From: Arthrobacter sp. A5
GTDB lineage: Bacteria > Actinomycetota > Actinomycetes > Actinomycetales > Micrococcaceae
Assembly (NCBI RefSeq): GCF_051131705.1
Contig: NZ_CP180316.1
Span: forward strand, 1,276,158 to 1,308,157
Length of the DNA stretch: 32,000 nt
Direction: 5' to 3'
A program made the translations under genes and the position numbers. Below the pieces are notes generated by a model, which saw only the letters and a program-made list of their open reading frames with translations, was not told the DNA's origin and searched no databases. Positions within the stretch are counted from its first letter, which is position 1; every line of letters begins with the position of its first letter. Of this stretch, positions 8,108 to 30,845 are shown one piece after another.

Positions 8108-8173
8108 ATCGATGACGCACTTGGGGCACATGTTGTTCGCCTCGACGACATGGGCGCCGAGTGTGTCATCGAT
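8108..8173. terminator. Long imperfect inverted repeat between convergent dctA and the ABC ATPase gene (possible bidirectional terminator)
   Basis: atcgatgacgcacttggggcacatg (8108-8132) pairs with catgggcgccgagtgtgtcatcgat (8149-8173) at 21 of 25 positions, with a 16-nt loop. The right arm overlaps the ATPase stop codon. No U-tract. Confidence 0.4.
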
Positions 8174-8975: not shown

Positions 8976-10044
8976 TGTCCCAGATCCTGTCCCGGTTGTG
9001 CCGCAGCAGCACGAAGAAGACGGGGGCGCCGATCAGCGCCGTCAGCACGCCCAGCGGAATTTCGCCGCCGGTGATGGTGCGGGCGACGGTATCAACGGCG
9101 ATGATGTAGGAGCCGCCGAGCAGAAAGGAGACGGGCAGCAGCACCCTGTGATCCGGCCCCACCCACATTCTGGCCAGATGTGGAATCACCAGCCCCACCC
9201 AGCTGATGACGCCGCTGACGGCCACCGCGCCGGCCACGATCAGGGCCACCGAGATCAGCACCACCCACCTCAGCGTGCGTGGCCGAAGCCCCAGTGCGGC
9301 AGCGTCCTCATCGCCCAGGGAGAGTACGTTTATTCGCCACCGAAGGGCGAGCAGCGCCGAGGTGCCGGCAAGGATTGGTACGACGGCGATCAGCACCTTG
9401 GCATAGCTGGCGGTAGCAACGCTGCCCAGCAGCCAGAAGACGATCGCGGGCAGCGTGCTGAACGGGTCGGCGAGGTAGGTTATGAGCGAGACAAGTGCGG
9501 AAAAGAATGATCCCACCACCACGCCGCCGAGGACGATCAGCAGCATCGGCGTCCCGCCCCGTCCGGAAGTGATCAGGAACAACAGCCCCAGCGCCACCAG
9601 GCCGAAGAGAAAAGAGCCGCTGACCAGCATGATGGCGCCGGCGCCGACGAGCAGCGCGATGGCTCCGCCGAAAGAAGCGCCAGCCGATACCCCGATGATT
9701 TCCGGGCTCACCAAGGGATTGCGGAAGATGGCCTGCAGCGCCGCGCCGCCGATTGCGAGACCGCCGCCGACCAGCAGCGCCAGCATGACCCGGGGGAGGC
9801 GTACCAGCAGCACCACACTTGCCTCGGAACTGGTCGCGGAGCTGTCCAACGGCAGCACATGGGAGAGGAGTGCCTGCACCACGTGCCAGAACGGGACGGT
9901 GTAACGGCCCATGGCCAAGGCCAGTAAAGCAACGCCGAGCAACAGGACGGCGGTGCCCGTCACCGGGCCGAAGGCTTTCGGAGAGCGGAAACGTCGGGGG
10001 TTCCCTAGCCCCACCCGCCGGTGCTCCCGGACCTCATGCGCCAT
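8968..10044 (-). CDS. ABC transporter permease, FecCD/BtuC family
   Basis: Highly hydrophobic protein of about 9-10 TM segments with the FecCD-type conserved region. Its start overlaps the binding-protein stop by 11 nt. Confidence 0.85.
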   Translation of the reverse strand: MAHEVREHRRVGLGNPRRFRSPKAFGPVTGTAVLLLGVALLALAMGRYTVPFWHVVQALLSHVLPLDSSATSSEASVVLLVRLPRVMLALLVGGGLAIGGAALQAIFRNPLVSPEIIGVSAGASFGGAIALLVGAGAIMLVSGSFLFGLVALGLLFLITSGRGGTPMLLIVLGGVVVGSFFSALVSLITYLADPFSTLPAIVFWLLGSVATASYAKVLIAVVPILAGTSALLALRWRINVLSLGDEDAAALGLRPRTLRWVVLISVALIVAGAVAVSGVISWVGLVIPHLARMWVGPDHRVLLPVSFLLGGSYIIAVDTVARTITGGEIPLGVLTALIGAPVFFVLLRHNRDRIWDSA

Positions 10045-11182
10045 TGAACTGCCGGTAGTTGGCTGACTGACCGTTCACCGACGTCCACAGCATAGTGTCG
10101 ATGTCCGCAGAGCTTGGCTCACGGCCGTAGAGGAGCTTGTAGTCGTCCATGATCGTGCTGCGCAGTGGAGAGACCGTCTGATCCGGGAAAGCGATGTCCG
10201 CCAGCCAGCGCCACATCAGCGGCGATTCCTGCCCGGGAGGGTCCCAGCGGTAACCGCCCAGGGGGACTTTGTAGACGCGTCGATCGCGCACCGCTGAGAC
10301 GTCCTTCCAAACCGGGTCCGAGGTGATGTCAGCGGGCAAGGCGTCGTCGAAATTGCCCAGCAGGAGGACCTCCGGGTCCCACGCCAGGACCTGTTCTACG
10401 TCCACCCCGACCATGCCGGAACCCTTGGTACCCTGGTCGCCGGACGCGGGATTCGTTCCGCCCACCAGCTTGATATAGAAGTCGTTGTAGCTGGCATTTC
10501 CCGCCACCTTGAGGCCGCCGGTAAACCGATTGAAGTAGAGGATGCTCGGTCCCTTTCGGGAACGGCTGGCGGTCAGCGCCATGATATTCGTCCGCGTCCG
10601 GTCGCTGCGGGCCTTGATCTGCGCGGCGCGGTCCGGTTTGCCCAGCATCGCGGCAAACATCGCAGTCCAGGCATCCACGTCCTCCTGCTTGCCCGTATTG
10701 GTCAGACCCAGGACCTTCAGCCCCGCGTTTTCGAGCGGTTCCGTGAACTGCGAATCGCTCCACTGCACCACGACGTCCGGATTCAGCGCCCGGATGCTCT
10801 CCACGTTGGGGGTGAAGTCATTGGCGGCGACGTCGTGTGGGATCTTCAGGGCGTCGGGGAACAGCTTGCCCATAATGCCGTCCCGCATGGCGAGCCAGGA
10901 GGCGTTGTGCATGGCGGCCAGATGGTCTGCGCTTTGGTCGACGGCGACGAGCAGCGAGGCGGCGGGCATGGGAATCGTCACGACCAGGGTGACAGGTTTG
11001 TCGAAGGTCAGCGTCTTACCGCGCTGGTCAGTTACAACGATCGGCTGCTGGGCGCTGACGGCGGCGCGCGGCGTGACGGCAGGTTCCGTTTTTGGTTGCC
11101 CGCAGGAGGCGAGGGCCGCCGCACCGCCGGCGACCAAAATGGTGGACAGAGCCGAGCGACGGCTCATGTCAGGGCTGCTCAC
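10034..11182 (-). CDS. ABC transporter substrate-binding lipoprotein (BtuF/FhuD-like)
   Basis: GTG start 7 nt downstream of AAGGAGG. Signal peptide has a twin-Arg (SRRSAL) and a lipobox (LASC). First gene of the three-gene importer operon. Confidence 0.8.
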   Translation of the reverse strand: MSSPDMSRRSALSTILVAGGAAALASCGQPKTEPAVTPRAAVSAQQPIVVTDQRGKTLTFDKPVTLVVTIPMPAASLLVAVDQSADHLAAMHNASWLAMRDGIMGKLFPDALKIPHDVAANDFTPNVESIRALNPDVVVQWSDSQFTEPLENAGLKVLGLTNTGKQEDVDAWTAMFAAMLGKPDRAAQIKARSDRTRTNIMALTASRSRKGPSILYFNRFTGGLKVAGNASYNDFYIKLVGGTNPASGDQGTKGSGMVGVDVEQVLAWDPEVLLLGNFDDALPADITSDPVWKDVSAVRDRRVYKVPLGGYRWDPPGQESPLMWRWLADIAFPDQTVSPLRSTIMDDYKLLYGREPSSADIDTMLWTSVNGQSANYRQFNGA

Positions 11183-11254
11183 GGGCTGGCCTCCTTACGG
11201 TAAAGATCAGCAAAGTATGCATTTTTTCAATTGCTCACAGCATCCGCCCGAACG

Positions 11255-11395
11255 ACAGGGCTGTCAATGACAGCGTCGGCCTGCCGGTGTCCTGTCCCAG
11301 TGGCTTCGGGCAGCCAGTGCAGCGAACGTCCGGCGCCGGGAATTAATGCCGGGACGTCACCTGCTGCGAGGGATCAAATCCTGGTCCTTGTAGCC
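11255..11395 (-). ncRNA. Candidate cobalamin (B12) riboswitch in the leader of the ABC importer operon
   Basis: The minus strand reads ..GGUGACGUCCCGGCAUUAAUUCCCGGCGCCGGACGUUCGCUGCACUGGCUGCCCGAAGCCACUGGGACAGGACACCGGCAGGCC.. It contains the conserved GCCACUG core (plus-strand cagtggc at 11298-11304) and an AAUUCC..GCGCCGGAC..GC.GCACUG segment resembling the AAUCC..GC.G..CCGC.ACUG core. The genomic context is typical for B12 elements. Matching was by eye only; extent approximate. Confidence 0.45.
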
Positions 11396-11448
11396 GGCGG
11401 TGGGTGGTGCTAGCGTCAAAATTACCTTTTGCTGAACGAGGCCGAATC

Positions 11449-12222
11449 ATGGTTATTAACGGTGCCCAGTTGTTTGTCCGTTACGCCTATCCGCCCAATT
11501 CCCGGGGCAGCTGCGGCCCGGAAGACAGCGACGCACTGCTGCATTACGGTCAATCCGGGGTGACGGACCGCGGACTCAAGGAGCTGGCAAAAGGCTTCGC
11601 CGGCGCATGGCCGTATCTTGAGCTGATTGCCGGGGCCACCAAAATCGCCGATCCGCTCGATTACCGGGTGGTGGAGGCCTATTGGGTGGGCAACAGACTG
11701 CTGGACACCGTCGGCGTGACGAATATCGGCAACTCGATGGAGGACCGCTTCCGCGCGCGGACGGGAATGCAGTTCCCGCATCTGGTCGAGGGAGTACTCG
11801 CCGGCGGGGTTCCGCACCACAGCTTCCATGTCTTCGAGATATATCCGTGGCTCGGGCTGCTCCGCGACGACCGCAGATACCCGACGGCGCTGAATGTGCT
11901 GGACCAGTGCCGCATCCGCTGGGGTGAAGTGCTGGCCGTGACCGCGGATGAGGCTGTGGTGCGCTCGCAGCCCCTGGTCTGGGACGGAGCGGTGTTAAGT
12001 CTTGGCCCGGCAATCGTGGAGACGGCCAAGCACGCCGTCGCGGGGGCAGGCTTTGTGGCCGATCTTGCCGTGGGTGACGCGGTATCGCTGCATTGGGATT
12101 GGGTGTGCGACCGTCTCACACCCCTGCAGCTGCAGCGGCTGCAGCACTTTACAACCAGGCACTTGAAGATAGCCAACGTCGGCGTCGAACACCGCGGCAC
12201 TGCCGTAGCGCTGGAACGCTAA
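11449..12222 (+). CDS. Conserved hypothetical protein, convergent with the hydrogenase operon (DUF6390-like by recollection)
   Basis: ATG at 11449. The GTG at 11404 would extend into the divergent riboswitch/promoter region. Coding-like GC3. No catalytic motif recognised. I recall similar proteins beside actinobacterial hhy clusters. Confidence 0.6.
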   Translation: MVINGAQLFVRYAYPPNSRGSCGPEDSDALLHYGQSGVTDRGLKELAKGFAGAWPYLELIAGATKIADPLDYRVVEAYWVGNRLLDTVGVTNIGNSMEDRFRARTGMQFPHLVEGVLAGGVPHHSFHVFEIYPWLGLLRDDRRYPTALNVLDQCRIRWGEVLAVTADEAVVRSQPLVWDGAVLSLGPAIVETAKHAVAGAGFVADLAVGDAVSLHWDWVCDRLTPLQLQRLQHFTTRHLKIANVGVEHRGTAVALER

Positions 12223-12246
12223 CGCCCCATCGCGGAGCGCCCGGTT

Positions 12247-12504
12247 CTAGCCAGCGGTCGCGTCTTCATCCACGCCGGAACCCATGAGCTTCAGGCCGCC
12301 CATCGCCTGCTCGGCTCCGGCCGCATCTACACGTTCCAAGGCGAATCCCATGTGGATAATCACCCACGTCCCCGCTTCCAGGGGCCCCTCGTCCAGCAGA
12401 CCAATGTTGATCTTTCGCCGTACACCGGCAACGTCCACCAGCGCCAGTTGGTCGCCATAGCCGGCCAGCAGTTCAATCACCTGGCCAGGGATTCCCAAGC
12501 ACAT
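12247..12504 (-). CDS. hypC: [NiFe]-hydrogenase maturation chaperone HypC/HupF
   Basis: Diagnostic N-terminus MCLGIPGQV, about 85 aa, last gene of the operon. Confidence 0.9.
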   Translation of the reverse strand: MCLGIPGQVIELLAGYGDQLALVDVAGVRRKINIGLLDEGPLEAGTWVIIHMGFALERVDAAGAEQAMGGLKLMGSGVDEDATAG

Positions 12505-13187
12505 GATCCGTTTCTCCTTACCGCTGGAATACGTTCAGTGATTTCATTGATGAGCTGCCGAATCTCACCCAGCGCGTCGGGTATGGCGGCTTCCACCGAT
12601 TCGGATAAGCCGATTCCTTCAGCCAGGTCACCGGGCACGCATCCCACGACGAACGTCAGAGGAAAGTCGCCGCCCAGGGATTTCATCCTGCCCAGCACGG
12701 CCGCCGGGTCCATGCCATGCGGGTCTAAGGCCGGTGGCCCGCTGCGGCCATGATCCGTGCTGTAATCGCCGTGAAGATCCTCGGGCCGGACCTGCAGAAC
12801 GCGGATGGCTCCGGGCTTCGCCGGCACCCGGCGGGAGCCCCCTGTTCCGTTTCCGCTGTAGCCTGTCAGCGGCGGGACGGCATCGACCAGGATCAGGGCG
12901 TCCACGCCATCCAACAGGTCATAGGCCAGATGCATTCCGCGGATGCCGTAGTCCACCGCGCGGACGCCCGGACTCGCCATGCCGGTATCTGCGCCCATCC
13001 GGCGCACAACCTCCGGGCCGAACCCGTCATCACGCTGGAACATGTTGCCTACTCCGGCCACGAGAATGCAGGCAGGGGCAATCGCACCGTCACCTGCGGG
13101 CACGGGTACAGAGTCACCCGCCATCACACGGTCACCCGCCGGCCCGGCGCTGCTGACTCCCGGGCCGACGGCATCGACGCCGCTCAC
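12477..13187 (-). CDS. [NiFe]-hydrogenase maturation endopeptidase (HyaD/HupD/HybD family)
   Basis: Core ILVAGVGNMFQRDDGFGPEVV and LILVDAV. The GTG start at 13187 overlaps the TGA of the upstream 39-aa ORF (GTGA). The 3' end overlaps hypC by 28 nt. It contains a Gly/Thr-rich insert. Confidence 0.8.
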   Translation of the reverse strand: MSGVDAVGPGVSSAGPAGDRVMAGDSVPVPAGDGAIAPACILVAGVGNMFQRDDGFGPEVVRRMGADTGMASPGVRAVDYGIRGMHLAYDLLDGVDALILVDAVPPLTGYSGNGTGGSRRVPAKPGAIRVLQVRPEDLHGDYSTDHGRSGPPALDPHGMDPAAVLGRMKSLGGDFPLTFVVGCVPGDLAEGIGLSESVEAAIPDALGEIRQLINEITERIPAVRRNGSCAWESLAR

Positions 13188-13303
13188 ATCCGGCTGATTT
13201 TCACGTAGCGGACAATGTCCGGGATCGAACGCACCATCACCGCGATTCCTGTCAGGGCTGTCAGTGCCAACAACACAGCGGACATTTTTCCAAGGCTTCT
13301 CAT
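13184..13303 (-). CDS. Small (39 aa) single-pass membrane peptide; not in the supplied ORF track (its shortest listed ORF is 60 aa)
   Basis: MRSLGKMSAVLLALTALTGIAVMVRSIPDIVRYVKISRM. The ATG lies 1 nt after the upstream TGA (TGAcATG), and its own TGA overlaps the protease GTG. One hydrophobic helix and a basic C-terminus. I recall similar mini-proteins annotated next to actinobacterial hydrogenase proteases. Confidence 0.6.
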   Translation of the reverse strand: MRSLGKMSAVLLALTALTGIAVMVRSIPDIVRYVKISRM

Positions 13304-13304
13304 G

Positions 13305-14816
13305 TCAGGTTCCCTTTCCGTCATTCATCGCGGGTACCGGATCGAGAGGCTCCAGCTCGTCCGGCGAGAAATAGAGGTATCTTCCGTACCACTCCTGCAG
13401 TTCCGCGGCCGGATCCGCTTCAATCACGACGGCGACATGCGTGCCGCCGTCGACGTCAAAATGAACGCCGGTCACGCGCGCCGTCTGTCCGGCAGAGAAC
13501 AGGTCCTGCGCGTCGGCCCGGCGGTTGGGCCGGACCACAACGCGACTGCCCCTGGCGACGGCCACCCCGTTAATGACGACGGCGTCGGCTTCCGGTCTGA
13601 CGCTGGAATCGGCCGCCGGGTCCCACCACGGGGGGCCCGCCAGAGGATCGTCGGTCAGCACCGGGAAGGCAGCGGCAAGGTCAGTACCATCCCGGGGGGC
13701 GCCAAGGAGTCCGGCGCCGCTTCCGGGACCGGCACCAAGCTCTTCTTCCGCATGGGGACTGCGCAGGATGCCGTGCAGAGCCTGCAGTTGAACATCGGTC
13801 ATCGCCTCGCAGCGGTCGATGATGGCCGCAGCCCGCGGATCCGTTGCCCTGGCTTCGGCCTTTTCATCCTCGGTGAGCGTCAGTACGCGCAGCGTAAGGA
13901 TCTCGTCGATTTCGGTTGAATCGTAGAGCGCCACCGAGCTTTCCGGAGCCACGGCGGGATGGTCATAAAGAATGATGGGGGAGATCAGCAGGACGTCGCT
14001 TTGCCCCTCGGGGCCGGCCAGGACAGGCCAGCCGCGGTGCTGCGAGCAGGACGCCGCCGCGGCCCGCGCGTCCTCCGGCGGGTCCAGCAGCGAAATGAAG
14101 TCTGCATCGTGCAGGCTCAGCAGCAGGTGCGTTCCGATGAAGGACAGAGCGATTGCTTCCGGCTTTTTTACTGTCCGGCCCCCTGCCGTGTTTTCAGCAC
14201 TCACCCGAAGACGCAGCAAGCCAGCGGTTGAGGATTCTCCGCCGCCGGTTCCTTCACCGCCGCCGGTACCGCCGAGTGCGGTACCGCCTACTGCGGTCGT
14301 GCCGAGCCCGACCTCGCACTGAAGCGGCAGCCGTCGGCGTACCAGTCGTCCTGCCACCGCACCGGCCGCATCCTGGAGCGTCTCCACTTCTTCGGCACCG
14401 GAAATCTGAACCGGCACAGTCAATCCGCCGGCCAGTTGATCGAGCGCGAACGGACCCAGCATCATCTCCTGTTCGGTCGCCTCGTCCCACGTCAGCCAGC
14501 GGGCCGCACCGATGCTGAGCTCCGACACCGGCGTGAACGTCCCGTCGTCGAACTTTTCGCACGTCCGGGACTGCAACTGTAGGAAGCGCAGATGCACCTC
14601 CAACCGGGCGTGCCGGCCGGCACGCAGCAGGGCATCCGCGAACATGGTTGATTCTTCGCCTGCCCCGGCGGCGGCCGCGCCGGGAGGGCCCAGGATGCCG
14701 AACTGCCAGCGTGACTGGTTTTTCTGTGAGGAGGCACGGTAGGGATAGAGGAGGTACCCCTCGTAAAGGACTGCGTCCGCGATGGCCCTGGCCAGGCTAA
14801 GACTTGGATTCATCAT
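13305..14816 (-). CDS. Conserved hypothetical protein (503 aa) of the Hhy operon
   Basis: The start overlaps the upstream stop (ATGA at 14813-14816). Coding-like composition. Internal Gly/Thr low-complexity insert (GGTALGGTGGGEGTGGGESS). No known catalytic motif recognised. Confidence 0.75.
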   Translation of the reverse strand: MMNPSLSLARAIADAVLYEGYLLYPYRASSQKNQSRWQFGILGPPGAAAAGAGEESTMFADALLRAGRHARLEVHLRFLQLQSRTCEKFDDGTFTPVSELSIGAARWLTWDEATEQEMMLGPFALDQLAGGLTVPVQISGAEEVETLQDAAGAVAGRLVRRRLPLQCEVGLGTTAVGGTALGGTGGGEGTGGGESSTAGLLRLRVSAENTAGGRTVKKPEAIALSFIGTHLLLSLHDADFISLLDPPEDARAAAASCSQHRGWPVLAGPEGQSDVLLISPIILYDHPAVAPESSVALYDSTEIDEILTLRVLTLTEDEKAEARATDPRAAAIIDRCEAMTDVQLQALHGILRSPHAEEELGAGPGSGAGLLGAPRDGTDLAAAFPVLTDDPLAGPPWWDPAADSSVRPEADAVVINGVAVARGSRVVVRPNRRADAQDLFSAGQTARVTGVHFDVDGGTHVAVVIEADPAAELQEWYGRYLYFSPDELEPLDPVPAMNDGKGT

Positions 14817-15454
14817 CGGACCGAATCACCGGCCGCCGCCAATAGCCCTTCAACAGCGGCTTCCCACGTGGTAAGCCCGAGGCTTGATTTGTAATGCGCC
14901 AGCGCTTTAAGTACATCCCGGTCAAGCCGGATCCAGCCGCTGTTGGGAAAATGTTGGTCCATCAGTTCAGTCCAGGTAGAGACCGGCAGTTGGAACGACG
15001 CCTCGCGGTCCCATGGGACCTGTTCGACGCCGAACCCCGTGACTCCCTTGGTGAAGATCGTTCCCGAGAACAGCAGTTCCACGGGGATGGTGCGCTCGCG
15101 GAGCGCATGCAGGTACTTCGCCGCCGCGACCTCGAAGTCGAACGTACATGGAAGTGCCAGATCCACCTCGGCCTGTCCGGTGAAACCCTGCACCATGGTG
15201 CTGCACTGCATCCAAAGGAAGGGCTTCAGCGTCGAAGGCCAGCGCACGCGGGTTCCGAAAAGATCCAGCAGACCGGCTTCCTCCTCCGGGGTGTAGCCCC
15301 TGCGCTGCGGCTGAATCCGCACCTGGCAGCGCAGCGCTATAGCATGGATTGCCGCCCCGGTGGATTCGGTCAGGAACAGCCGGGCGGTCAACTGGGGGGA
15401 GGCGGCATAGCGTTCCGGGATAATGTCCAGAACACTGAAGCCAAGGTCCGTCAT
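14813..15454 (-). CDS. Conserved hypothetical protein (213 aa), DUF6084-like by recollection
   Basis: 4-nt overlaps on both sides (15451-15454 and 14813-14816). No cofactor motif seen. Confidence 0.75.
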   Translation of the reverse strand: MTDLGFSVLDIIPERYAASPQLTARLFLTESTGAAIHAIALRCQVRIQPQRRGYTPEEEAGLLDLFGTRVRWPSTLKPFLWMQCSTMVQGFTGQAEVDLALPCTFDFEVAAAKYLHALRERTIPVELLFSGTIFTKGVTGFGVEQVPWDREASFQLPVSTWTELMDQHFPNSGWIRLDRDVLKALAHYKSSLGLTTWEAAVEGLLAAAGDSVR

Positions 15455-16149
15455 GGCCGGGGCCCGCTTCCGGCGTGGACCGATCCGGAGAAAGTGCCGG
15501 GATAAGGTCTGCTGCGGTTGTTCACACGCTCAAAGAACGCGGTGAGCTGGGCACGCGCGTCTTGGCCGCCGTCGAAGCCCCGCCAGACCTTGCGCAGTTG
15601 GCCGACCAGTTCATAGCAGGCATCAATCGGCACGAGATGGCAATCGGCCTTCAGGCGCTCCGGTCCGGGAGCACGGATCAGCAAAGCCTCCGTGTCCGGC
15701 ACGGCAACGGCAACGGCAGGGTTGCTGGCCAGCACCGGGTCCCAGGCCCCCAGCGGCAACTCTGACTCGGTGGCACCGGCGGGGCCAGGATAAAATGCAA
15801 CGGTCCGCCCCATCCGGGAATTGGTGAAGAAGAATGCCAAGCCAACGGGAATCTCAAGTTCATCCCACCCGCCGCTTCCCAGTTCAAAGCCGGGGAAGGA
15901 AAGGTAACGCTCGGGCACCGAACGGTAACGCAGGTGCGCCGTCGCATCGGTGAAGAGCAGGTAGCACGGGCGGCAAGTGCACATCAGTGCGCGGCTGTCC
16001 ACGTCCACCACGTGCTGGTGTTTTTCCGCAAGAGGCTCGGCGCACATCTCACAGCGCTCGCCAGCGGTGGCGGCTGGACGACTGACAGCGATGCGCCGGA
16101 GCATGGCAACCGGCCCTGCAGCTGCGATGCTGCCTGTTCCGGTGTTCAC
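15451..16149 (-). CDS. Conserved hypothetical Cys-motif protein (232 aa), DUF5947-like by recollection
   Basis: N-terminal Cys cluster CEMCAEPL..HQHVVD..LMCTCRPC suggests a metal site. 4-nt overlaps with both neighbours. Confidence 0.75.
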   Translation of the reverse strand: MNTGTGSIAAAGPVAMLRRIAVSRPAATAGERCEMCAEPLAEKHQHVVDVDSRALMCTCRPCYLLFTDATAHLRYRSVPERYLSFPGFELGSGGWDELEIPVGLAFFFTNSRMGRTVAFYPGPAGATESELPLGAWDPVLASNPAVAVAVPDTEALLIRAPGPERLKADCHLVPIDACYELVGQLRKVWRGFDGGQDARAQLTAFFERVNNRSRPYPGTFSGSVHAGSGPRP

Positions 16150-17180
16150 GAAGCCGTCCTGGCAGGGATGGCCACGGAGGTAACGCCGCCGCGAACGAGC
16201 AGCGGTAGGGGATCCAGATGCATTGCCTTGTCTTCCAGACAGGCACCGGCCATCCGGACATCAAAATGGGCCCGGCAGGTGGGGCAGCGCAGCAGCCCGC
16301 CGCCGGTGGGGGCTGCAAGGGCGCGCTGCAACGACGCCCCGGCCATGGACTTCGTGCACCGTGGGCAGTAGTCCAAGTAAGCGAAAATATCCTCGCCGAT
16401 CCGGCAGGCCAGCACCTGGGCTCCACCGATCAGGAAGCCGGCCACCTCGCCGGCCTGCAGTCCGGCAAGCTCCGCCGCCGCCTCCCATGAACCACCTGCT
16501 GGACCCGGAACGGACCGTCCGGCCTGTAGATCCTTTTCTGCCTGTTGATCCAGGCGCATCCGCAGCGCATTCACCGGAATGACCGCAGGGGACTGGGCGG
16601 ACTCCTCCTCCGCCACCTGGATCGATGTCACTTCGGGGGCCGCCGTTTCAATGGCATCCTCGACAGCAAGCTTGAGTGTCACGGACGAGGACGGGCAGCC
16701 GTGGCAGCTCCCCAGCAGGCGGAGGCTCACCACCCCGTCCGCGCTGATGCCCAGCAGCTCCACGTCGCCCCCATGGGATCCAAGGTACGGCCGGACACTA
16801 TCCAGCGCCGCGGCGACTCTGGTTGGCAAGTCCTGTGGATGCAGACCGTGGACCAGCAGCAGACCTGAGATCAGCTCGTCTTTGATCAGGGCCTCCAGTG
16901 TGCCGTCCGTTTCGCCTCCCCGGGCCGAAATGACGTCCAGCACGCGTTCCAGCCCGGCGCCGTAGAGATCCGTAACTTGCCGGACCAGTTCCTCGGCGCG
17001 CTCGCGGGCCACCGAACCACCGGAGGACAGGGCGTCCAACAGCGTTCCGATCCGTTCGCCAGAGTTCCGCAGCTGGTCCCCGCCGGACCGGGCCGCAGGC
17101 ACCGGCGCCGCGGCCCACGGTGCGGCGGCCGCAGGAGCTACGGCTTCACTTGGCTCCAGCAAACCGTTCTGCGCGTTCAT
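16146..17180 (-). CDS. hhyE: Hydrogenase-associated putative Fe-S protein (NifU-like domain plus Rieske-like C-terminal domain)
   Basis: NifU-type CxxC block LLGSCHGCPSSSVTLK. C-terminal Rieske-fold-like segment ACRIGEDIFAYLDYCPRC...LRCPTCRAHFDVRMAG. It sits immediately downstream of hhyL, like mycobacterial HhyE. Confidence 0.7.
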   Translation of the reverse strand: MNAQNGLLEPSEAVAPAAAAPWAAAPVPAARSGGDQLRNSGERIGTLLDALSSGGSVARERAEELVRQVTDLYGAGLERVLDVISARGGETDGTLEALIKDELISGLLLVHGLHPQDLPTRVAAALDSVRPYLGSHGGDVELLGISADGVVSLRLLGSCHGCPSSSVTLKLAVEDAIETAAPEVTSIQVAEEESAQSPAVIPVNALRMRLDQQAEKDLQAGRSVPGPAGGSWEAAAELAGLQAGEVAGFLIGGAQVLACRIGEDIFAYLDYCPRCTKSMAGASLQRALAAPTGGGLLRCPTCRAHFDVRMAGACLEDKAMHLDPLPLLVRGGVTSVAIPARTAS

Positions 17181-17186
17181 GGCAAG

Positions 17187-18980
17187 TCATTCCCCGGTGA
17201 GGGACTGCGTGGGGGAGTGCAGCATATCCAAGGATTTACCCTCGCCCAAATACATGTGCACGCCGCAGGGCAGGCAAGGGTCGAAGCTACGGACCGTGCG
17301 CATGATGTCGATCCCCTTGAAATTCTCCCGATCGTTTTCTTCAAAGATGGGCTGACCCTGCACCGCGTCTTCATAGGGCCCCGGGGTTCCGGAGGCATCA
17401 CGCGGACTGGCGTTCCACGGTGTCGGCGGATAAGGATGGTAATTGGCGATCTTTCCGTCGCGGATCACCATGTGGTGCGAAAGAACGCCGCGGACCGCTT
17501 CGGTGAAGCCGCAGCTGACAGCCTCGTCCGGGACCTCAAACGATTCCCACGTCTTGGTCCGCCCGGCACGGACTTCCTCGAGCGCCTTTTCTGCGAAATG
17601 CAGGGCAGCTGCCGCGGCATACGCCTGGAAATAGGTGCGGGCCCGGTTGCGCTCGAGTGTGTTGCTCCATTGCGGGATCTTCCATTCGAGGGACACGGGT
17701 CCCTTGAGCGCCGTTTTCGGCAGGTTGATCTCCACGCTGTGTCCGGTGGATTTGATGTAGCCGATATCGACCAGCCCCGCCAGCGCCGTTGACCAGAGCC
17801 GTGCGAGCGGGCCACCACCGGTATCCAGCGCCAGATTGCCTTGCCCGTCGAACCAGCGCGGCGACATCACCCAGCTGTACTTGTCCTCCAGATCCCGCTT
17901 TTGCGGGAGCGGGTTGGTGTGCTGGTTCCACGGATGACGCCGGTCCACCGGGTTGCCCAGCGGATCATTCTTGACGAACATTTCCTGGTCATTCCAGTCC
18001 TCATAGTAGGAGGAGCCAAGCATGATCCGGATGCCGAGGTTGATCCGCACGAGATCCGTGGTGACCAGTTTTCCGTCGACGACGACGCCCGGGGTGACGA
18101 ACATCTTCCGGCCCCAGTCTGTCATGTCCTTGTAGGCGAAGTTGCAGAATTCCGGGTCCTGGAAGGAGCCCCAACACCCCAGCAGCGTCCGCCGCAGCCC
18201 GACCTGCTCATAGCCGGGAAGCGCGTCGTAGAAGAAATTGAAGAGGTCGTCGTGCATGGGTACGACCTTCTTCATGAATTCCACGTAGCGCATCAACCGG
18301 GTGATGTAGTCCGTCATCAGCTGGATCGTGGCGACGGTGCCGACTCCGCCCGGATAGAGCGTGGAGGGGTGTACGTGGCGACCCTCCATGAGGCAGAACA
18401 TTTCCCGGGTGAGCCTGCTGACCTGCAGCGCCTCGCGGTAAAACTCGCCGGTAAATGGATTCAGCGAGCGCATGATGTCCGCGATGGTCCGATAGCCGTG
18501 TTCGCCTTCATGCGGGGCGCGGGTGTTTTCCGCCTTGGCCAGCACACCCGGGTTGGTTTCGGAGACCATTTTTTCGCAGTAGTCCACGCCGACCAGGTTC
18601 TCCTGGAAGATATTATGATCGAACATGTACTCCGCGGCTTCGCCCAAATTGACGATCCATTCGCCAAGATGTGGGGGCTTTACCCCATAGGCCATGTTTT
18701 GCGCGTAGCAGGAGCACGTGGCGTGATTGTCCCCGCAGATCCCGCAGATCCGGCTGGTGATGAAGTGCGCGTCCCGCGGATCCTTGCCGCGCATAAAGAT
18801 CGAGTAGCCGCGGAAGATCGATGAGGTGCTGTGGCACTCCACGACTTCCTTGTTTTTGAAATCGATTTTGGTATAAATGCCAAGGCTGCCCACGATCCGC
18901 GTGATGGGGTCCCAAGCCATCTCCACCAGTGAGTCGTCTGCGGTGCTGCCCTGTGCGGGTAATGGAATCGTGGAGGTCAT
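17187..18980 (-). CDS. hhyL: [NiFe]-hydrogenase large subunit, group 1h (high-affinity, actinobacterial type)
   Basis: N-terminal Ni-Fe ligand motif TSRICGICGDNH and C-terminal SFDPCLPCGVH, followed by a cleavable tail MYLGEGKSLDMLHSPTQSLTGE. About 597 aa. These are the signatures I know for group 5/1h enzymes. Confidence 0.9.
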   Translation of the reverse strand: MTSTIPLPAQGSTADDSLVEMAWDPITRIVGSLGIYTKIDFKNKEVVECHSTSSIFRGYSIFMRGKDPRDAHFITSRICGICGDNHATCSCYAQNMAYGVKPPHLGEWIVNLGEAAEYMFDHNIFQENLVGVDYCEKMVSETNPGVLAKAENTRAPHEGEHGYRTIADIMRSLNPFTGEFYREALQVSRLTREMFCLMEGRHVHPSTLYPGGVGTVATIQLMTDYITRLMRYVEFMKKVVPMHDDLFNFFYDALPGYEQVGLRRTLLGCWGSFQDPEFCNFAYKDMTDWGRKMFVTPGVVVDGKLVTTDLVRINLGIRIMLGSSYYEDWNDQEMFVKNDPLGNPVDRRHPWNQHTNPLPQKRDLEDKYSWVMSPRWFDGQGNLALDTGGGPLARLWSTALAGLVDIGYIKSTGHSVEINLPKTALKGPVSLEWKIPQWSNTLERNRARTYFQAYAAAAALHFAEKALEEVRAGRTKTWESFEVPDEAVSCGFTEAVRGVLSHHMVIRDGKIANYHPYPPTPWNASPRDASGTPGPYEDAVQGQPIFEENDRENFKGIDIMRTVRSFDPCLPCGVHMYLGEGKSLDMLHSPTQSLTGE

Positions 18981-19007
18981 TGCCTCTGCCTCTTTCTCAT
19001 GCCGTTC

Positions 19008-20066
19008 TTACCAGGTACGGGTGGCGCCTGTAAGCAGTTCGCGGCCGGTCCTGCGCCAGCGTGGTTCCTTATCAAGGGTGTTCATGGTGATGTGCCGCAG
19101 AGTCCGGACGGCAGCGCCGTACGGCCGCACGGCGTTGGTTGAGAGAATGCCGCCAGGAGGCTCGTCCATGAACGGCATGAACTTATCCGGGAAACCTGGC
19201 ATGGTGCAGCCTATGCAGATGCCGCCGACGTTCGGACACCCCCCAATTCCATTCATCCAGCCGCGTTTGGGAACATTGCATTTAACCACCGGGCCCCAAC
19301 AGCCCAGCTTCACAATGCACTTCGGGGAGCCGTATTCGGTGGCAAAATCACCCTGCTCGTAGTACCCCGCCCGGTCACACCCCTCGTGCACGGTCCGGCC
19401 GAATAGCCACGTCGGCCGCAGCGCGTCGTCCAAGGGGATCATCGGTGCCTGTCCGGTCGCCTGATAGAGCAGATAGGTGATGGTTTCGGAGAGATTGTCC
19501 GGCTGGATCGGGCATCCCGGAACACAGACAATCGGTATCCCGGCCTTGGATTTCCAGTCGTAACCGAGGTAATCGGGAACGCCCATCGCGCCGGTGGGGT
19601 TACCTGCCATGGCATGGATCCCGCCGTAGGCAGCGCACGTACCGGCGGCAATAATCGCAGTTGCCTTCGGCGCGAGGCGGTCCAGCCACTCGCTTGTCGT
19701 GATGGGTTGTCCGGTTTCCAGATCATTTCCGAATCCGGACCAGTATCCGCCCACGTCGTGCAGTTTCTCGTTGGGAATGGAACCCTCTACAACGAGGACA
19801 AAAGGCTCCAATTCCCCTCGGTCCGCCTTGCGGAACCACTCAAGGAAGTCATCAGCGCCCTCCTGCGGGCCGCATTCGAAATCAATGAGCGGCCAGTGCA
19901 TGGCAATCTTCGGCAGGCCGGGCAGGGCACCGAGAGCGATTTCCTCCACGCTGGGCTGCGTTGCCGCGGTCAGTGCCACCGAGTCGCCATCGCAGCTGAG
20001 CCCTGCATTGATCCACAAAACATGTATAAGCGCTTCTTCGGCCTTAATCGAAGCTTCTGTAGGCAT
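19008..20066 (-). CDS. hhyS: [NiFe]-hydrogenase small subunit, group 1h, no Tat signal
   Basis: Fe-S ligand blocks LSCDGDS, GTCAAYGG, CVPGCP, GCDRAG, KLGCWGPVVKCNVP and CPNVGGICIGCTMPGF. The N-terminus MPTEASIKAEE lacks an RRxF twin-arginine motif. Confidence 0.9.
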   Translation of the reverse strand: MPTEASIKAEEALIHVLWINAGLSCDGDSVALTAATQPSVEEIALGALPGLPKIAMHWPLIDFECGPQEGADDFLEWFRKADRGELEPFVLVVEGSIPNEKLHDVGGYWSGFGNDLETGQPITTSEWLDRLAPKATAIIAAGTCAAYGGIHAMAGNPTGAMGVPDYLGYDWKSKAGIPIVCVPGCPIQPDNLSETITYLLYQATGQAPMIPLDDALRPTWLFGRTVHEGCDRAGYYEQGDFATEYGSPKCIVKLGCWGPVVKCNVPKRGWMNGIGGCPNVGGICIGCTMPGFPDKFMPFMDEPPGGILSTNAVRPYGAAVRTLRHITMNTLDKEPRWRRTGRELLTGATRTW

Positions 20067-20127
20067 CGTTGCCTCCTTTGAGAGTCCTGCTCATCCGAGC
20101 CGGGCCCATTATGCGTATGTCTGCACC

Positions 20128-21021
20128 TCAGACACGGACGCCATCCGGTAGAGTAGCGGCGCCCGCGCGCACCGCCGGAGCATTAGCATTTTTCATCAGC
20201 CAGTCGTACCAACCGTCCAGGCCTACGCCCGTCGTGGCGGAAACGGAGAGCATCTCGACGCGTGGATTCAGTTGCCGTGCCTGGCGGAGGCATTGATCCA
20301 CGTCGAATTCAACATAAGGCAGTAGATCCGACTTATTGATAATCACGAGATCTGCTGCCATAAACATGTGCGGATACTTTTGCGGCTTATCATCACCCTC
20401 CGTGACGGAAATAATTACTACTTTGGCTGTTTCGCCGAGATCAAAAAGCGCCGGACAGACCAAATTTCCGACATTTTCAATGAAGAGCGTTGATCCCTGC
20501 TCCGGATTCAACGCGTCGAGCCCCCGTCGGAGCATATCGGCGTCCAGATGGCAGCCGGCTCCGGTGTTAATCTGAACGGCCGGACGCCCGGCGGTGCGGA
20601 TGCGGTCGGCGTCCAGCGACGTCTCCTGGTCGCCTTCGATGACGGCGATGTTAAGCCTGCTTCCCAGTTCTTCAATGGTGCGCACCAGCAGGGTTGTCTT
20701 GCCCGCTCCGGGGGAACTCATCACATTGAATGCCTGGATGCCGCGTCCCTCCAGCCAGCCCCGGTTCCGCGCCGCCAGCAGATCGTTCTTGGCGAGCAGG
20801 CTTTGCTCCAGCGCGATCGTGGCCACCGGAGCATGGCTGTGCGCCTGCCCACTCTCGTGCACGTGATCGTGGCCACCATCGTGCGCGTGGTCGTGCGGAT
20901 GCTGCCGGCCGCCGTCGTGCAGATGCTGGTGATCGAGAACCGGTTCCGGGGACGCACCGCTGCCGTCCCCGGTTGACACCCGGACTCCGACGTCGTCGCT
21001 GCAACCGCAGGTAGCGCACAT
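20128..21021 (-). CDS. hypB: Hydrogenase nickel-incorporation GTPase HypB with a His-rich N-terminal region
   Basis: MCATCGC N-terminus, a His-rich stretch HQHLHDGGRQHPHDHAHDGGHDHVH, P-loop SSPGAGKTTLL, and NKSDL. Confidence 0.9.
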   Translation of the reverse strand: MCATCGCSDDVGVRVSTGDGSGASPEPVLDHQHLHDGGRQHPHDHAHDGGHDHVHESGQAHSHAPVATIALEQSLLAKNDLLAARNRGWLEGRGIQAFNVMSSPGAGKTTLLVRTIEELGSRLNIAVIEGDQETSLDADRIRTAGRPAVQINTGAGCHLDADMLRRGLDALNPEQGSTLFIENVGNLVCPALFDLGETAKVVIISVTEGDDKPQKYPHMFMAADLVIINKSDLLPYVEFDVDQCLRQARQLNPRVEMLSVSATTGVGLDGWYDWLMKNANAPAVRAGAATLPDGVRV

Positions 21022-21023
21022 TT

Positions 21024-21353
21024 TTACCCCACTTCCACGGAAGCAAGCATCAGCTCGCGGCCGCCCGTAATTTCAACGTCGGCGCTGCCACAGGTGCACA
21101 GCGGGATCGTATCCGGGAGAATGAAACTCTGCCGGCACGTGTGACAGGTGGCCCGGCCCGCTGGCTCATCGATTCGCAGATCCGCCCCGGCCAGCGGGGT
21201 TCCCTCGGCCAGCAGCTGGAAGCAGAACCGCAGGGCATCCGGCAGAACTCCGCTGAGCCGCCCGATTCGCAGGTTCACGCCGGTGACAGTGCGATCGCCG
21301 GTGCAGTCGAGCACCGCGTCAACCAGGCTTTGGGTAATGGAGAGTTCGTGCAT
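21024..21353 (-). CDS. hypA: Hydrogenase nickel-insertion protein HypA
   Basis: Canonical MHELSI N-terminus with GAGGTGG 8 nt upstream. Zn motif CHTC...CTCGS. The ATG at 21389 gives a non-canonical 12-aa extension. Confidence 0.85.
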   Translation of the reverse strand: MHELSITQSLVDAVLDCTGDRTVTGVNLRIGRLSGVLPDALRFCFQLLAEGTPLAGADLRIDEPAGRATCHTCRQSFILPDTIPLCTCGSADVEITGGRELMLASVEVG

Positions 21354-21376
21354 GGGCTTTGCCACCTCGTGACAAC

Positions 21377-21405
21377 AATGTAGGCTCATGGGCCGTTAAC
21401 CGCAA
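21377..21405 (-). promoter_or_regulatory. Candidate sigma-A type promoter for hypA-hypB-hhy
   Basis: The minus strand reads TTGCGG (21405-21400), a 17-nt spacer, then TACATT (21382-21377). This is followed by the RBS GAGGTGG and the hypA ATG at 21353. The -35 lies inside the proximal 17-bp tandem-repeat unit. Confidence 0.35.
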
Positions 21406-21478
21406 TAGGTTCCGAACCGCAATAGGTTCCGGCGGCCTGTGCAGCGCACTCTGATCCGGCGGTCTGTGCAGTGCACTC
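21398..21478. repeat. Two pairs of direct repeats upstream of hypA
   Basis: aaccgcaataggttccg twice, perfect and adjacent (21398-21414, 21415-21431). ccggcggYctgtgcagYgcactc twice (21429-21451, 21456-21478; 2 mismatches). Each copy of the second repeat holds a GTGC(A)-N-(T)GCAC palindrome. Confidence 0.85.
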
Positions 21479-21506
21479 GGGTGTGCTACGGAGCACACCC
21501 GAGTGC
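21473..21506 (-). terminator. Perfect 15-bp stem / 4-nt loop hairpin 20 nt downstream of the hoxN stop
   Basis: gcactcgggtgtgct acgg agcacacccgagtgc. GC-rich stem with no clear U-tract on the transcribed strand, so it may be a terminator, attenuator or RNA-stability element. Confidence 0.45.
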
Positions 21507-21525
21507 GGTACGGAAGGGTGCGCCG

Positions 21526-22662
21526 TCAGGAGTCGACGTCGGGCGGGGTTGGACGCCGCAGCGCTGCGGTCCACTTATCTTCGATCCGACCGAACTTCCA
21601 AGTGCCGACGGCGATGATCCAGGCCAGCACAAAAATCGCCACGATGGCGTAGCCGACGTTGTTCAGATCCAGCCCCCCGATAGCCGCCAGCGGTCCGGAG
21701 TGGATCCCGGTTCTGTCGACCAGAATGGAGATGAGCTCGATCGACCCGATAATCAGCGCTACGGCAACGGAAAGCCCGGTGATGACGAGGTTGTAGTAGA
21801 TCTTGCGGACGGGTTTCGAGAACGCCCAACCATAGGCAAAGTTCATGAAGCACCCGTCCAGCGCATCCAAGAGGCTCATTCCGGCAGCGAAGAGAACCGG
21901 CAGGGTCAGAATGGCGTACCAGGGCAGCGAAAGCGCTGCCGCACCGCCGGCCAGCACCAGCAGGGAAACTTCCGTGGCCGTATCGAAACCCAGACCGAAC
22001 AACAGACCGACGACGTACATTTGCCAGGGCCGGGTGACGAGCCGGTTCACGCCGCCGAACAGCCGGTTCATTAGGCCTCGATTGTTGAGCTGGTGTTCCA
22101 GCGCCGGCTCATCGAACTGGCCCTGCCGCATACGGCGGAAGATTTTCACGATGCCCAGCAGGATCACCAGGTTGATGATCCCGATGATGTAAAGAAAGAT
22201 CCCGGAGACACCGGTCCCGATGAGTCCAAGCACCGTGTGCAGGGTAGAGGAATCGGCGTCCACCTGACCGGCCAAGGTATGCATGCCCAGAGCCAGCAGG
22301 AAGCACAGTCCGAAGACTATGCTCGAATGGCCCAGGGAAAACCAGAACCCCACGGAAAGTGGCCTCTTCCCGTCGTTCATCAGCTTGCGCGTGGTGTTGT
22401 CAATGGCGGCAATATGATCAGCGTCGAAGGCATGCCGCAGGCCCAAGGTATAAGCGGTGACCCCCAGCCCCAGCCCGAAAACCCCCGCCTGACCCGTCTG
22501 TCGATGTGCCGGTTCCACAATGCCGGCCAGCACCCCCCAACCCACCAGGTGCAGGAGTGCCACGAACCCCGCCATCGAGGCGATCGAACCCCACTCTCGG
22601 AGGGTCAGGGCCCTCCGGATGCGGCTGATCCGGGACCCTGCGGCTCGTTCAAGGGTGCTCAT
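21526..22662 (-). CDS. hoxN: Nickel/cobalt permease, NiCoT (HoxN/HupN/NixA) family
   Basis: NiCoT signature RHAFDADHIAAIDNTTRKL and the second block FSLGHSS. About 8 TM segments. Conservative ATG start at 22662; an in-frame GTG at 22773 would add a 37-aa Cys/His-rich extension. Confidence 0.85.
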   Translation of the reverse strand: MSTLERAAGSRISRIRRALTLREWGSIASMAGFVALLHLVGWGVLAGIVEPAHRQTGQAGVFGLGLGVTAYTLGLRHAFDADHIAAIDNTTRKLMNDGKRPLSVGFWFSLGHSSIVFGLCFLLALGMHTLAGQVDADSSTLHTVLGLIGTGVSGIFLYIIGIINLVILLGIVKIFRRMRQGQFDEPALEHQLNNRGLMNRLFGGVNRLVTRPWQMYVVGLLFGLGFDTATEVSLLVLAGGAAALSLPWYAILTLPVLFAAGMSLLDALDGCFMNFAYGWAFSKPVRKIYYNLVITGLSVAVALIIGSIELISILVDRTGIHSGPLAAIGGLDLNNVGYAIVAIFVLAWIIAVGTWKFGRIEDKWTAALRRPTPPDVDS

Positions 22663-22711
22663 CTGCTCGTTTTCATGGTGCGTTGTCTCCCCACGCCCGT
22701 CGGCCAGATGT

Positions 22712-23419
22712 TCACGGCCGTGCCGGTGATGGTCGGGTGGCGAACGCGAGCCGCAGGTAGGGCAGGTACTCACGCCCGATGACGGCGGTTAGCAGCCGAC
22801 CGTCAAGGTCGGCGGCCAATCCGAGCACGTGGGGATCCGAGTCGACCCGCAGGCCCACGACATCCGCACCACCGACGGAAACCGGATAGCCGTGCTCAAT
22901 ACTGTCCTCGGACGCCGGATCGATGAGTTCGCCGGGAAACCCGCCGTGGACGCGTACGTCACGGTACGTGTTTCTCACGATGTAGTTGATGTGTTCGACC
23001 AACGCCAGCTCCGGAGTGTGCCGGGTGTATCCGTCATGCCCCTGGACTTCGCTGATGTGAGTCGTGCGCACTGCATCCCACAGCAGCGGGTAACACATCC
23101 TGGCACGCCACCGGCTGATCCACTCCGGCAGCGGCCACGGCGGCTCCGCGTCGAGGGCTGCCCGCATCTCCTCAGTAAGGTCCACGAGGTTGGCGGGATC
23201 GTCGCGATCGGACGGGTTACGCCACAACGTATATGACAGCGTTGCTGCTTCCATCACCGGTTGATGATCCTGCGTTTGAGATGATATGCCGGCGCTCGCT
23301 TCCTCGACTGAGTCCTGGGCGGCGAGCGTCAGCAACGGCACGGCAAAACCAGCGGCAATTTCATCCGGTGTCGGCGGCTCCGGAGCATCGGACGGACGCC
23401 GGCTGCGATCGAGGAACAT
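22712..23419 (-). CDS. Hypothetical protein, no recognised domain
   Basis: Long ORF with coding-like GC3. The ATG at 23419 is preceded by GGAG; the longest ORF starts at TTG 23455. It lies directly upstream of hoxN on the same strand. Confidence 0.55.
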   Translation of the reverse strand: MFLDRSRRPSDAPEPPTPDEIAAGFAVPLLTLAAQDSVEEASAGISSQTQDHQPVMEAATLSYTLWRNPSDRDDPANLVDLTEEMRAALDAEPPWPLPEWISRWRARMCYPLLWDAVRTTHISEVQGHDGYTRHTPELALVEHINYIVRNTYRDVRVHGGFPGELIDPASEDSIEHGYPVSVGGADVVGLRVDSDPHVLGLAADLDGRLLTAVIGREYLPYLRLAFATRPSPARP

Positions 23420-23458
23420 GTAGCAACTCTGCTCCTGCCATCGTTCAAGATGCAATGC

Positions 23459-27570: not shown

Positions 27571-27585
27571 TTCACAGCCTCTGAA

Positions 27586-27775: not shown

Positions 27776-27832
27776 GGGAGGAACCCGGCCCCTCCGGCAT
27801 CTTTGCGATGTCGGCCAAACTTGGAGTTCCTC

Positions 27833-30829
<2,997 letters not shown>

Positions 30830-30845
30830 CCCAGCGTCCATTAAC

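Follow-up and report, generated by a model that had tools for sequence, protein, structure and literature searches.

A four-gene block in a group 1h hydrogenase operon

The window analyzed here is a stretch of 32,000 nucleotides (nt) from Arthrobacter sp. A5 (contig NZ_CP180316.1), the minus strand of which carries a [NiFe]-hydrogenase (Hhy) operon. Four consecutive genes of this operon, encoding a DUF5947 protein, a DUF6084 protein, a 503-amino acid protein, and a DUF6893 microprotein, separate hhyE from the gene for the maturation endopeptidase. Judged by sequence, they represent in Arthrobacter a set of accessory genes that accompanies group 1h [NiFe]-hydrogenases, and gene fusions in relatives join their soluble products to HhyE and to the endopeptidase. 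With as much doubt as confidence, we propose that the block, HhyE, and the endopeptidase make up an Hhy-specific assembly or maturation module in which the microprotein would act as a membrane tether. Group 1h hydrogenases count among the main biological sinks of atmospheric H2 and sustain dormant soil bacteria, and the block touches on two questions: the role of HhyE and the hypothetical proteins encoded beside it, and how an enzyme that has no membrane segment reaches the membrane and feeds the quinone pool. The genes of the operon, with positions counted from the first letter of the window, are as follows.

22773..21526, minus strand: nickel transporter NicO
21389..21024, minus strand: hypA, judged genuine
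21021..20128, minus strand: hypB
20066..19008, minus strand: hhyS, small subunit of the group 1h hydrogenase
18980..17187, minus strand: hhyL, large subunit of the group 1h hydrogenase
17180..16146, minus strand: hhyE, NifU-like with a weak Rieske-like domain, assigned to the same putative module as the block
16149..15451, minus strand: DUF5947 gene (ORF1), 232 amino acids, GTG start
15454..14813, minus strand: DUF6084 gene (ORF2), 213 amino acids
14816..13305, minus strand: gene for the 503-amino acid protein (ORF3)
13303..13184, minus strand: DUF6893 microprotein gene (ORF4), 39 amino acids, with an alternative start at 13324 that would give 46 amino acids
13187..12477, minus strand: [NiFe]-hydrogenase maturation endopeptidase of the HupD/HycI type (NCBIfam TIGR00072, 89.5 bits)
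12504..12247, minus strand: hypC

The four open reading frames (ORFs) lie on the minus strand at 13184-16149, between hhyE and the protease gene, as the original prediction had placed them, and they are not chance ORFs because thousands of homologues exist and the synteny is strict. The stop/start coupling claimed for the whole block was found at four junctions (hhyE/ORF1, ORF1/ORF2, ORF2/ORF3, and peptide/protease), each with a 4-nt overlap; it does not extend to the start of the peptide, which lies past the 503-amino acid protein stop after a gap of 1 nt and is preceded by the Shine-Dalgarno sequence GGAAAGGGA 7 nt upstream.

The operon belongs to group 1h (the Hhy, or actinobacterial, type) on the basis of the large subunit motifs, sequence identity, and a small subunit that lacks a twin-arginine translocation (Tat) signal. 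HhyL is 77% identical to PHG065 of Cupriavidus necator, carries the group 1h L1 motif TSRICGICGDNH and the L2 motif SFDPCLPCGVH when compared with the published motifs, and has a C-terminal extension of 23 residues beyond CGVH. The N-terminus of HhyS (MPTEASIKAEEAL...) contains no RR (twin-arginine) motif, in agreement with the earlier description of the enzyme system as Tat-less. The neighboring HypC, protease, and HypB were recognized normally by Pfam and NCBIfam models. No hypD, hypE, or hypF was found in the part of the window that was surveyed (9000-24200 plus the larger ORFs elsewhere), and these genes are probably located elsewhere in the genome.

The first protein of the block matched Pfam DUF5947 (PF19372) with 241.5 bits against a cut-off of 25 over profile positions 1-176 of 177, and the second matched DUF6084 (PF19562) with 307.8 bits against a cut-off of 25 over positions 1-210 of 213; matches of both types had been anticipated. 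The DUF5947 protein matches the "DUF5947 family protein" that NCBI lists for Arthrobacter sp. A5 at 100% identity, and it consists of a Cys/His-rich N-terminal region followed by an alpha/beta C-terminal domain. Its candidate metal ligands are encoded at two sites.

15964..16053, minus strand: metal-ligand motif C33-x2-C36-x7-H44-x-H46-x10-C57-x-C59-x2-C62, invariant
15616-15618, minus strand: codon for Cys178, invariant

The Cys cluster that the original prediction had quoted for this protein is present and proved to be part of this larger motif. None of the eight ligand residues varies among 50 close homologues or in a cross-phylum alignment that covers Actinomycetota, Cupriavidus, and Methylocystis (Alpha-/Betaproteobacteria). 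An AlphaFold2 (AF2) model of the protein was confident for residues 80-215 and of low confidence for the Cys region (residues 33-76), and a Foldseek search of the PDB with this model returned no match (best E value 0.22). A ferredoxin, rubredoxin, or Rieske assignment found no Pfam or NCBIfam match beyond DUF5947 and no PDB relative by sequence or profile search. HypA-type metallochaperones contain a Zn ribbon formed by two CxxC pairs together with a separate Ni site. By analogy from general knowledge, the spacing of C33/C36 and C59/C62 resembles such a zinc ribbon (CxxC...CxxC), and the additional ligands H44, H46, C57, and C178 could form a second site. Unlike HypA, the DUF5947 protein has no HypA match in Pfam or NCBIfam, and a separate, genuine hypA lies at 21024-21389.

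The invariant Cys5His2 motif also favors an alternative that we regard as unlikely, although it deserves serious consideration: HhyE, the DUF5947, DUF6084, and 503-amino acid proteins, and the DUF6893 peptide may be permanent subunits that carry electrons from the distal cluster of HhyS to menaquinone and keep the enzyme at the membrane, a role comparable to that of HucM for Huc. This alternative gains from the suggestion in the literature that PHG067/MSMEG_2717, the DUF5947 counterpart, is the hydrogenase electron acceptor. It loses at the next two genes. The alignments show one invariant Cys in DUF6084, and neither DUF6084 nor the 503-amino acid protein has a conserved Cys/His cofactor-ligand cluster in any of the alignments, including the cross-phylum ones. 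An electron-acceptor role is thus unsupported for these two proteins, and a link to an electron acceptor or quinone is open only for DUF5947. Because DUF6084 lacks a cofactor motif, we presume that it has a scaffold or protein-binding role.

The 503-amino acid protein matched nothing in Pfam, NCBIfam, PHROGs, or PADLOC, and a Pfam scan of its separate domains at E ≤ 10 was also empty. Its family is nevertheless large: a word-indexed search gave at least 8000 matches, all of those with a source name being called "hypothetical protein," and clustering at 50% identity left 3829 representatives with E ≤ 1e-3. In a tblastn comparison, residues 11-491 (96% of the length) aligned with a "hypothetical protein" of the C. 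necator H16 megaplasmid pHG1 at 33.4% identity (E value 1e-42). The pHG1 gene sits between those for DUF6084 and the protease, which places the window protein in the PHG069-type family. The AF2 model places an N-terminal helix, a beta-sandwich, an acidic helical segment, a variable disordered linker, and an SH3-like barrel in that order; three of these parts were located as follows.

13977..14699, minus strand: beta-sandwich domain, about residues 40-280, with a predicted local distance difference test (pLDDT) score mostly of 86-97
13761..13979, minus strand: most conserved segment, residues 280-352, acidic, of low confidence in the AF2 model
13332..13604, minus strand: C-terminal SH3-like beta-barrel, about residues 405-495, assigned by Foldseek

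The conserved segment reads SPIILYDHPxVAPES...LYDSTEIDEILTLR...EK.EARATDPR...LHG..R, and D285, D299, E302, D304, E305, E318, and H348 are invariant in both the diverse and the cross-phylum alignments. The C-terminal barrel matched PetP (2n5u and 7r0w_V), a peripheral subunit of the cytochrome b6f complex, with a probability of 1.0 and TM scores of 0.64-0.77 relative to the target. This likeness concerns the fold of the last ~90 residues only; the sequences are not similar, SH3-like barrels are very common, and the confidence of the model is mixed in this region. For the beta-sandwich, the PDB offered only the DISARM protein DrmA, which was also the only significant Foldseek match of the 503-amino acid model (E value 1.4e-4, probability 0.99); with TM scores of just 0.19-0.21 it was set aside as uninterpretable. 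An origin in defense systems or phages was likewise rejected, as PADLOC gave only a fragment match to SduA (E value 0.07) and PHROGs gave nothing.

The DUF5947, DUF6084, and 503-amino acid families showed no mutual homology by profile-profile comparison with hhalign (probability below 1%), and the three soluble proteins have no relatives among PDB sequences by single-sequence or profile search. When all four proteins of the block were compared with models for HypA-F, HupF/HypC, HyaE/HyaF, and HoxL/O/Q/R/T/V, there was no Pfam or NCBIfam match beyond the three DUFs.

Gene fusions and gene order

Fusions were surveyed in 150 representatives of the 50%-identity clusters of the 503-amino acid family. 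A DUF6084 domain is fused to the N-terminus of this protein in P0432 (765 amino acids), which belongs to a 28-member cluster drawn from NCBI, JGI, ENA, and Logan sequences and occurs on many independent contigs. DUF5947 is joined to it in P0499 (623 amino acids, four contigs). Seven of the 150 representatives carry a HycI-type endopeptidase at the C-terminus, beginning 10-40 residues past the SH3-like barrel; the fused proteases retain the GNxxxxDDGFG, DA, and DxHG motifs. At least four of these seven each turn up in two or more full-length sequences or contigs, and an Acidimicrobiaceae metagenome-assembled genome from NCBI is among the sources. In a neighbor-joining tree, which was poorly resolved, the seven are scattered, each beside unfused relatives, and they likely represent several independent events.

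HhyE enters the same network through a 375-amino acid protein in which its N-terminal domain is fused to DUF5947 (L084/L085; BLASTP E value of 5e-14 to the HhyE of the window). In the loci that encode the DUF6084-503-amino acid fusion, this HhyE-like/DUF5947 fusion is the gene after hhyL. On the basis of these sequences, HhyE, the three soluble proteins, and the endopeptidase are tied into one module. Because the fused endopeptidase is a biogenesis enzyme, we favor a role in assembly over permanent electron transfer, and its recurrent fusion to the 503-amino acid protein is hard to square with a permanent electron-transfer subunit. A search for a corresponding fusion of the peptide was negative: there was none among 269 members of the 503-amino acid family, and an apparent 503-amino acid protein-DUF6893 fusion in L031 was rejected since a stop codon separates the two.

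HhyE itself gave a Pfam NifU match of 78 bits and a weak Rieske_2 match. The Rieske-like domain of the window protein, together with the reported co-migration of HhyE with HhyS and HhyL, speaks for electron-carrying subunits. The proteobacterial HhyE proteins and that of L083 lack this domain, and the NifU-like CxxC is lost in two others (L085 3035-4162 and L086 7465-8004), where GPGAG and GVEGPP replace GSCHGCP; both observations count against that alternative, and the second argues against a universal Fe-S role for the NifU-like domain.

Gene order was compared after a genome scan with a diverse alignment of the 503-amino acid family, which confirmed at least 589 loci; 80 of them, mostly from Actinomycetota, were kept. 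The order hhyS-hhyL-hhyE-DUF5947-DUF6084-503-amino acid protein-(DUF6893)-protease-hypC was found in all 80 wherever the contig reaches far enough, and, apart from DUF6893, the order is annotated in the same way on pHG1 and on a plasmid of Methylocystis parvus. In PLSDB, the 13 plasmids with a group 1h hhyL are the same 13 that have the gene for the 503-amino acid protein. Absence of hhyL from the genomes that hold the block had been named beforehand as an outcome that would overturn the assignment, and the opposite was found throughout: the 80 loci, the proteobacterial plasmids, and 13 of 13 PLSDB plasmids all combine the two. We conclude that the genes belong to the hydrogenase system, as had been predicted.

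A passenger origin, in which the block is linked to the operon and has no role in hydrogenase function, is effectively excluded by this conserved order across Actinomycetota and Alpha-/Betaproteobacteria at only 33-41% identity, by the strict plasmid co-occurrence, by the translational coupling of the genes, and by the fusions to HhyE and to the protease. What can be said for it is that L086/L087 (7465-10339) hold part of the module, namely an HhyE-like gene, a DUF5947-503-amino acid fusion with no DUF6084, and an endopeptidase, among unrelated genes, with hydrogenase structural genes absent from the surrounding 8 kb, and that some DUF6893 genes lie on contigs that lack an Hhy gene.

The median identities to the window proteins were 86-87% for HhyS and HhyL, 51-59% for HhyE, DUF5947, DUF6084, and the 503-amino acid protein, 47% for the protease, and 64% for HypC. 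The block may thus diverge at a rate near that of the protease and HypC, a maturation-factor rate that agrees weakly with an assembly role and sits poorly with electron-carrying subunits. On both proteobacterial plasmids, RefSeq names the Hhy small subunit "hydrogenase expression protein HypE" (pHG1, L081 4208-5263; Methylocystis, L082 4287-5366). This label looks like a systematic misannotation, which a paper of 2026 also remarks on for R. equi.

The pHG1 genes correspond to PHG064 to PHG070, as deduced from their position in the operon and from the literature, which equates PHG067 with the MSMEG_2717 family. PHG067-069 represent the same three families as the soluble genes of the block, in the same order, between a NifU-like gene and the endopeptidase gene, and the C. 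necator proteins are only 34-41% identical to those of the window. Like these families, MSMEG_2717 of M. smegmatis and its downstream genes have been described as conserved hypotheticals, and the wording of the paper on the T. roseum hhySL operon suggests that its conserved hypotheticals hhaABC are probably the same three families. "HP" genes have also been remarked on in Acidobacteria, and a 2026 paper still refers to "6 genes encoding hypothetical proteins." The statement that no function has been established for the block therefore holds. The claim of undescribed biology was overstated, inasmuch as the soluble families are known conserved hypotheticals; the window genes add to known uncharacterized families, their operon is well known, and they do not make up a system of a new kind. 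In the papers that we searched, we found no earlier mention of the fusion network that connects the block with HhyE and the endopeptidase.

The DUF6893 microprotein

The last protein of the block matched Pfam DUF6893 (PF21833) with 35.8-36.9 bits against a cut-off of 24.6. Two features were located in it.

13232-13285, minus strand: transmembrane helix, residues 7-24
13187-13231, minus strand: conserved basic C-terminal tail RSIPDIVRYVKISRM

Over a 19-residue Kyte-Doolittle window the peptide scored 2.04, and every other protein of the operon scored 1.53 or less, which bears out the earlier description of a single-pass helix that is the only membrane element of the enzyme system. The start that gives 39 amino acids is supported by homologues that open with the same M-R/K-x-x-G. 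Neither the 39- nor the 46-amino acid product is on record as a gene for this genome in the public collection that was searched, and an exact look-up of P0121 likewise gave no record. The consensus tail of the family is (R)S[IVL]PDxxRYxKxRxM-stop; that of the window peptide reads PDIVRYVKISRM, with Ser at position -3, which is Arg in nearly all homologues. Met is the last residue before the stop codon in every DUF6893 peptide (13184-13189 in the window), including those whose stop codon is not overlapped by a following gene.

The peptide is encoded in nearly all related non-proteobacterial loci with intact sequence, either after the gene for the 503-amino acid protein or after the protease gene. 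To our reading of the papers searched, this near-universal and often unannotated transmembrane microprotein of actinobacterial-type Hhy loci has not been pointed out before. The C. necator and Methylocystis loci do not encode it and also differ from the window in that their HhyE proteins have no Rieske-like domain, and a tblastn search of plasmids with the peptide, a short query subject to masking, gave no match. A scan of metagenomes with the back-translated motif, over sequences that carry no taxonomy, yielded at least 120 loci. Among the metagenome loci listed, a transmembrane helix precedes the tail in 119 of 120, comprising 78 short and 41 long forms; the latter (65-70 amino acids) consist of the helix, a 25-residue linker, and the same tail. 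Long forms follow the genes for the 503-amino acid protein and the protease, in this order, in all 31 cases with enough flanking sequence. Short forms follow the gene for the 503-amino acid protein or the protease in 32 of 49 cases, and others lie beside hhyS/hhyL in differing arrangements.

Hhy has been described as membrane-associated "despite lacking transmembrane regions," and the C. necator enzyme is described as cytoplasmic. The distribution of the peptide fits this contrast, which rests on two proteobacterial loci, and makes a role as membrane tether plausible. The same facts can be claimed for electron-carrying, membrane-bound subunits: an enzyme with no transmembrane region of its own is at the membrane, its operon encodes a transmembrane peptide, the locus of the cytoplasmic C. 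necator enzyme has none, and the peptide stays beside hhySL even in differently arranged operons. That reading is weakened by Methylacidiphilum, where the group 1h enzyme is coupled to the membrane although the block is missing. It can also draw on a YceI-like gene (PF04264, polyisoprenoid-binding family) that directly follows DUF6893 and precedes hypA in the fused-gene lineages (L083 10044-10565 and L084 4361-4873), which may point to a connection with lipids or quinones.

HucM reportedly serves the group 2a hydrogenase Huc as a scaffold associated with the membrane. The likeness of the peptide to HucM concerns the proposed role only, that of a non-catalytic partner that takes a Tat-less, high-affinity, "soluble-looking" hydrogenase to the membrane and the quinone. 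Unlike HucM, the candidate anchor of the window is a separate 39-amino acid transmembrane peptide, and no quinone-binding element is evident in the window. The microprotein is easily overlooked and offers a specific candidate for the contact with the membrane that is missing in Hhy.

Two further observations concern this part of the operon. DUF6893 genes occur in tandem in L020 (11500-11722) and L051 (11479-11698). In nine actinobacterial loci (L008, L009, L017, L021, L022, L037, L053, L055, and L072), though not in the window, the space between DUF6893 and the protease holds one or two short ORFs that are highly acidic, probably disordered, and marked by the conserved motifs EEPQxERGxxGSRDTGSDEP... 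and PPYEGRxExAD...GGATGP....

Proposed role of the block and its surroundings

The original prediction had offered three roles for the block. A maturation machine is favored for the soluble proteins by their fusions to HhyE and the endopeptidase, a tether is plausible for the peptide, and the electron/quinone link found no support for DUF6084 and the 503-amino acid protein. In the assembly pathway that we infer, down to each biochemical step, the direction of each interaction, and the topology of the peptide, DUF5947 would bind a metal or an Fe-S center through its Cys5His2 site, with Cys178 as a possible further ligand, and together with the NifU-like part of HhyE it would load or check the cofactor of the hydrogenase precursor. 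DUF6084 and the 503-amino acid protein, which have no cofactor ligands, may serve as scaffold or chaperone. The latter would recruit the endopeptidase beside its C-terminal SH3-like barrel, and this recruitment could couple cleavage of the C-terminal extension of HhyL to the preceding steps. The DUF6893 peptide would be inserted in the cytoplasmic membrane with its basic tail (PDxxRYxKxRxM-COOH) directed toward the cytoplasm, where the tail may dock the assembly complex, the finished enzyme, or both.

Comparable arrangements are known for other hydrogenases. The helpers of O2-tolerant membrane-bound hydrogenases (MBH), such as HoxL/O/Q/R/T/V of R. eutropha and HyaE/HyaF of E. coli, are encoded beside the structural genes together with a specific endopeptidase, and they include HoxR, a rubredoxin-like, Cys-rich metal protein. 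The block of the window resembles these helpers in concept only, as a set of hydrogenase-specific factors that includes a Cys-rich metal protein. It has no sequence or fold relationship to them, and its genes precede the protease gene and are sometimes fused to it. As Hhy has no Tat signal, it would not need Tat-proofreading chaperones. A helper of the rubredoxin type has been cited in the literature. In a more far-reaching form, which strikes us as possible and yet somewhat doubtful, HhyE, DUF5947, DUF6084, the 503-amino acid protein, and the endopeptidase would be an unrecognized dedicated assembly machine, unrelated to the Hyp, Hox, and Hya systems and held at the membrane by the DUF6893 microprotein. 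If this were true, HhyE would be recast as an assembly factor rather than an electron acceptor, and the atmospheric-H2-oxidizing hydrogenases would have a new class of [NiFe] maturation factors.

Several points weigh against a role in assembly. By Pfam, NCBIfam, PDB, and Foldseek searches, none of the proteins resembles a known maturation factor in sequence or fold. The AF2 models of DUF5947 and the 503-amino acid protein reach only moderate confidence, with a pLDDT near 70, and are poor in the segments that are conserved best. Fusions of translationally coupled neighbors arise easily; they prove that the proteins are associated and not what kind of function they have. On native gels HhyE reportedly runs together with HhyS and HhyL, which fits a stable subunit. 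About 17 of the 119 DUF6893-like genes among those listed are on contigs with no Hhy gene, about seven of these contigs being informatively long. Finally, a group 1h locus of Methylacidiphilum was found to have neither HhyE nor the block, and its enzyme is described as active and membrane-associated; the module is not universally required.

This dispensability in some lineages, along with the description of Hhy in the literature as the persistence-phase enzyme, lends something to a different explanation that we consider quite improbable, namely that the module stabilizes, stores, repairs, or regulates the enzyme while cells stay dormant in air for long periods, for instance through re-metallation or by shielding Fe-S clusters against O2. 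The 5.5-fold induction of hhaABC under carbon limitation in T. roseum would agree with such a function, and the metal motif of DUF5947 and its NifU-like partner would suit repair. Against it, loss of HhyE abolishes Hhy activity outright and does not merely shorten its lifetime, the endopeptidase acts once, in biogenesis, so that fusion to it points to assembly, and no regulatory or redox-protective domain was found in the sequences by Pfam or NCBIfam. The assembly module, by comparison, is compatible with the literature on HhyE, in which hhyE deletion mutants phenocopy structural-subunit mutants and a role in maturation is explicitly left open. The fusion network provides a testable grouping of HhyE, DUF5947, DUF6084, the 503-amino acid protein, and the protease, and it shifts the balance from an electron acceptor toward an assembly machine. 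The accessory genes may need to be co-expressed when O2-insensitive Hhy enzymes are made in other hosts.

Other genes of the window were noted in passing. A DUF6390 protein (11404-12222, plus strand, 299.6 bits) is encoded convergently to hypC and has a homologue in 64 of the 80 related Hhy loci; it looks like another uncharacterized hydrogenase-linked family. Just past the hydrogenase cluster, 8166-11182 on the minus strand encodes a candidate ABC uptake system, in which the ABC ATPase was identified by Pfam and the permease-like and binding-protein-like ORFs were judged from reading their sequences only. Sizeable minus-strand ORFs with no Pfam match are located at 22712-23455, 27572-29512, 29648-30451, and 30464-31060.

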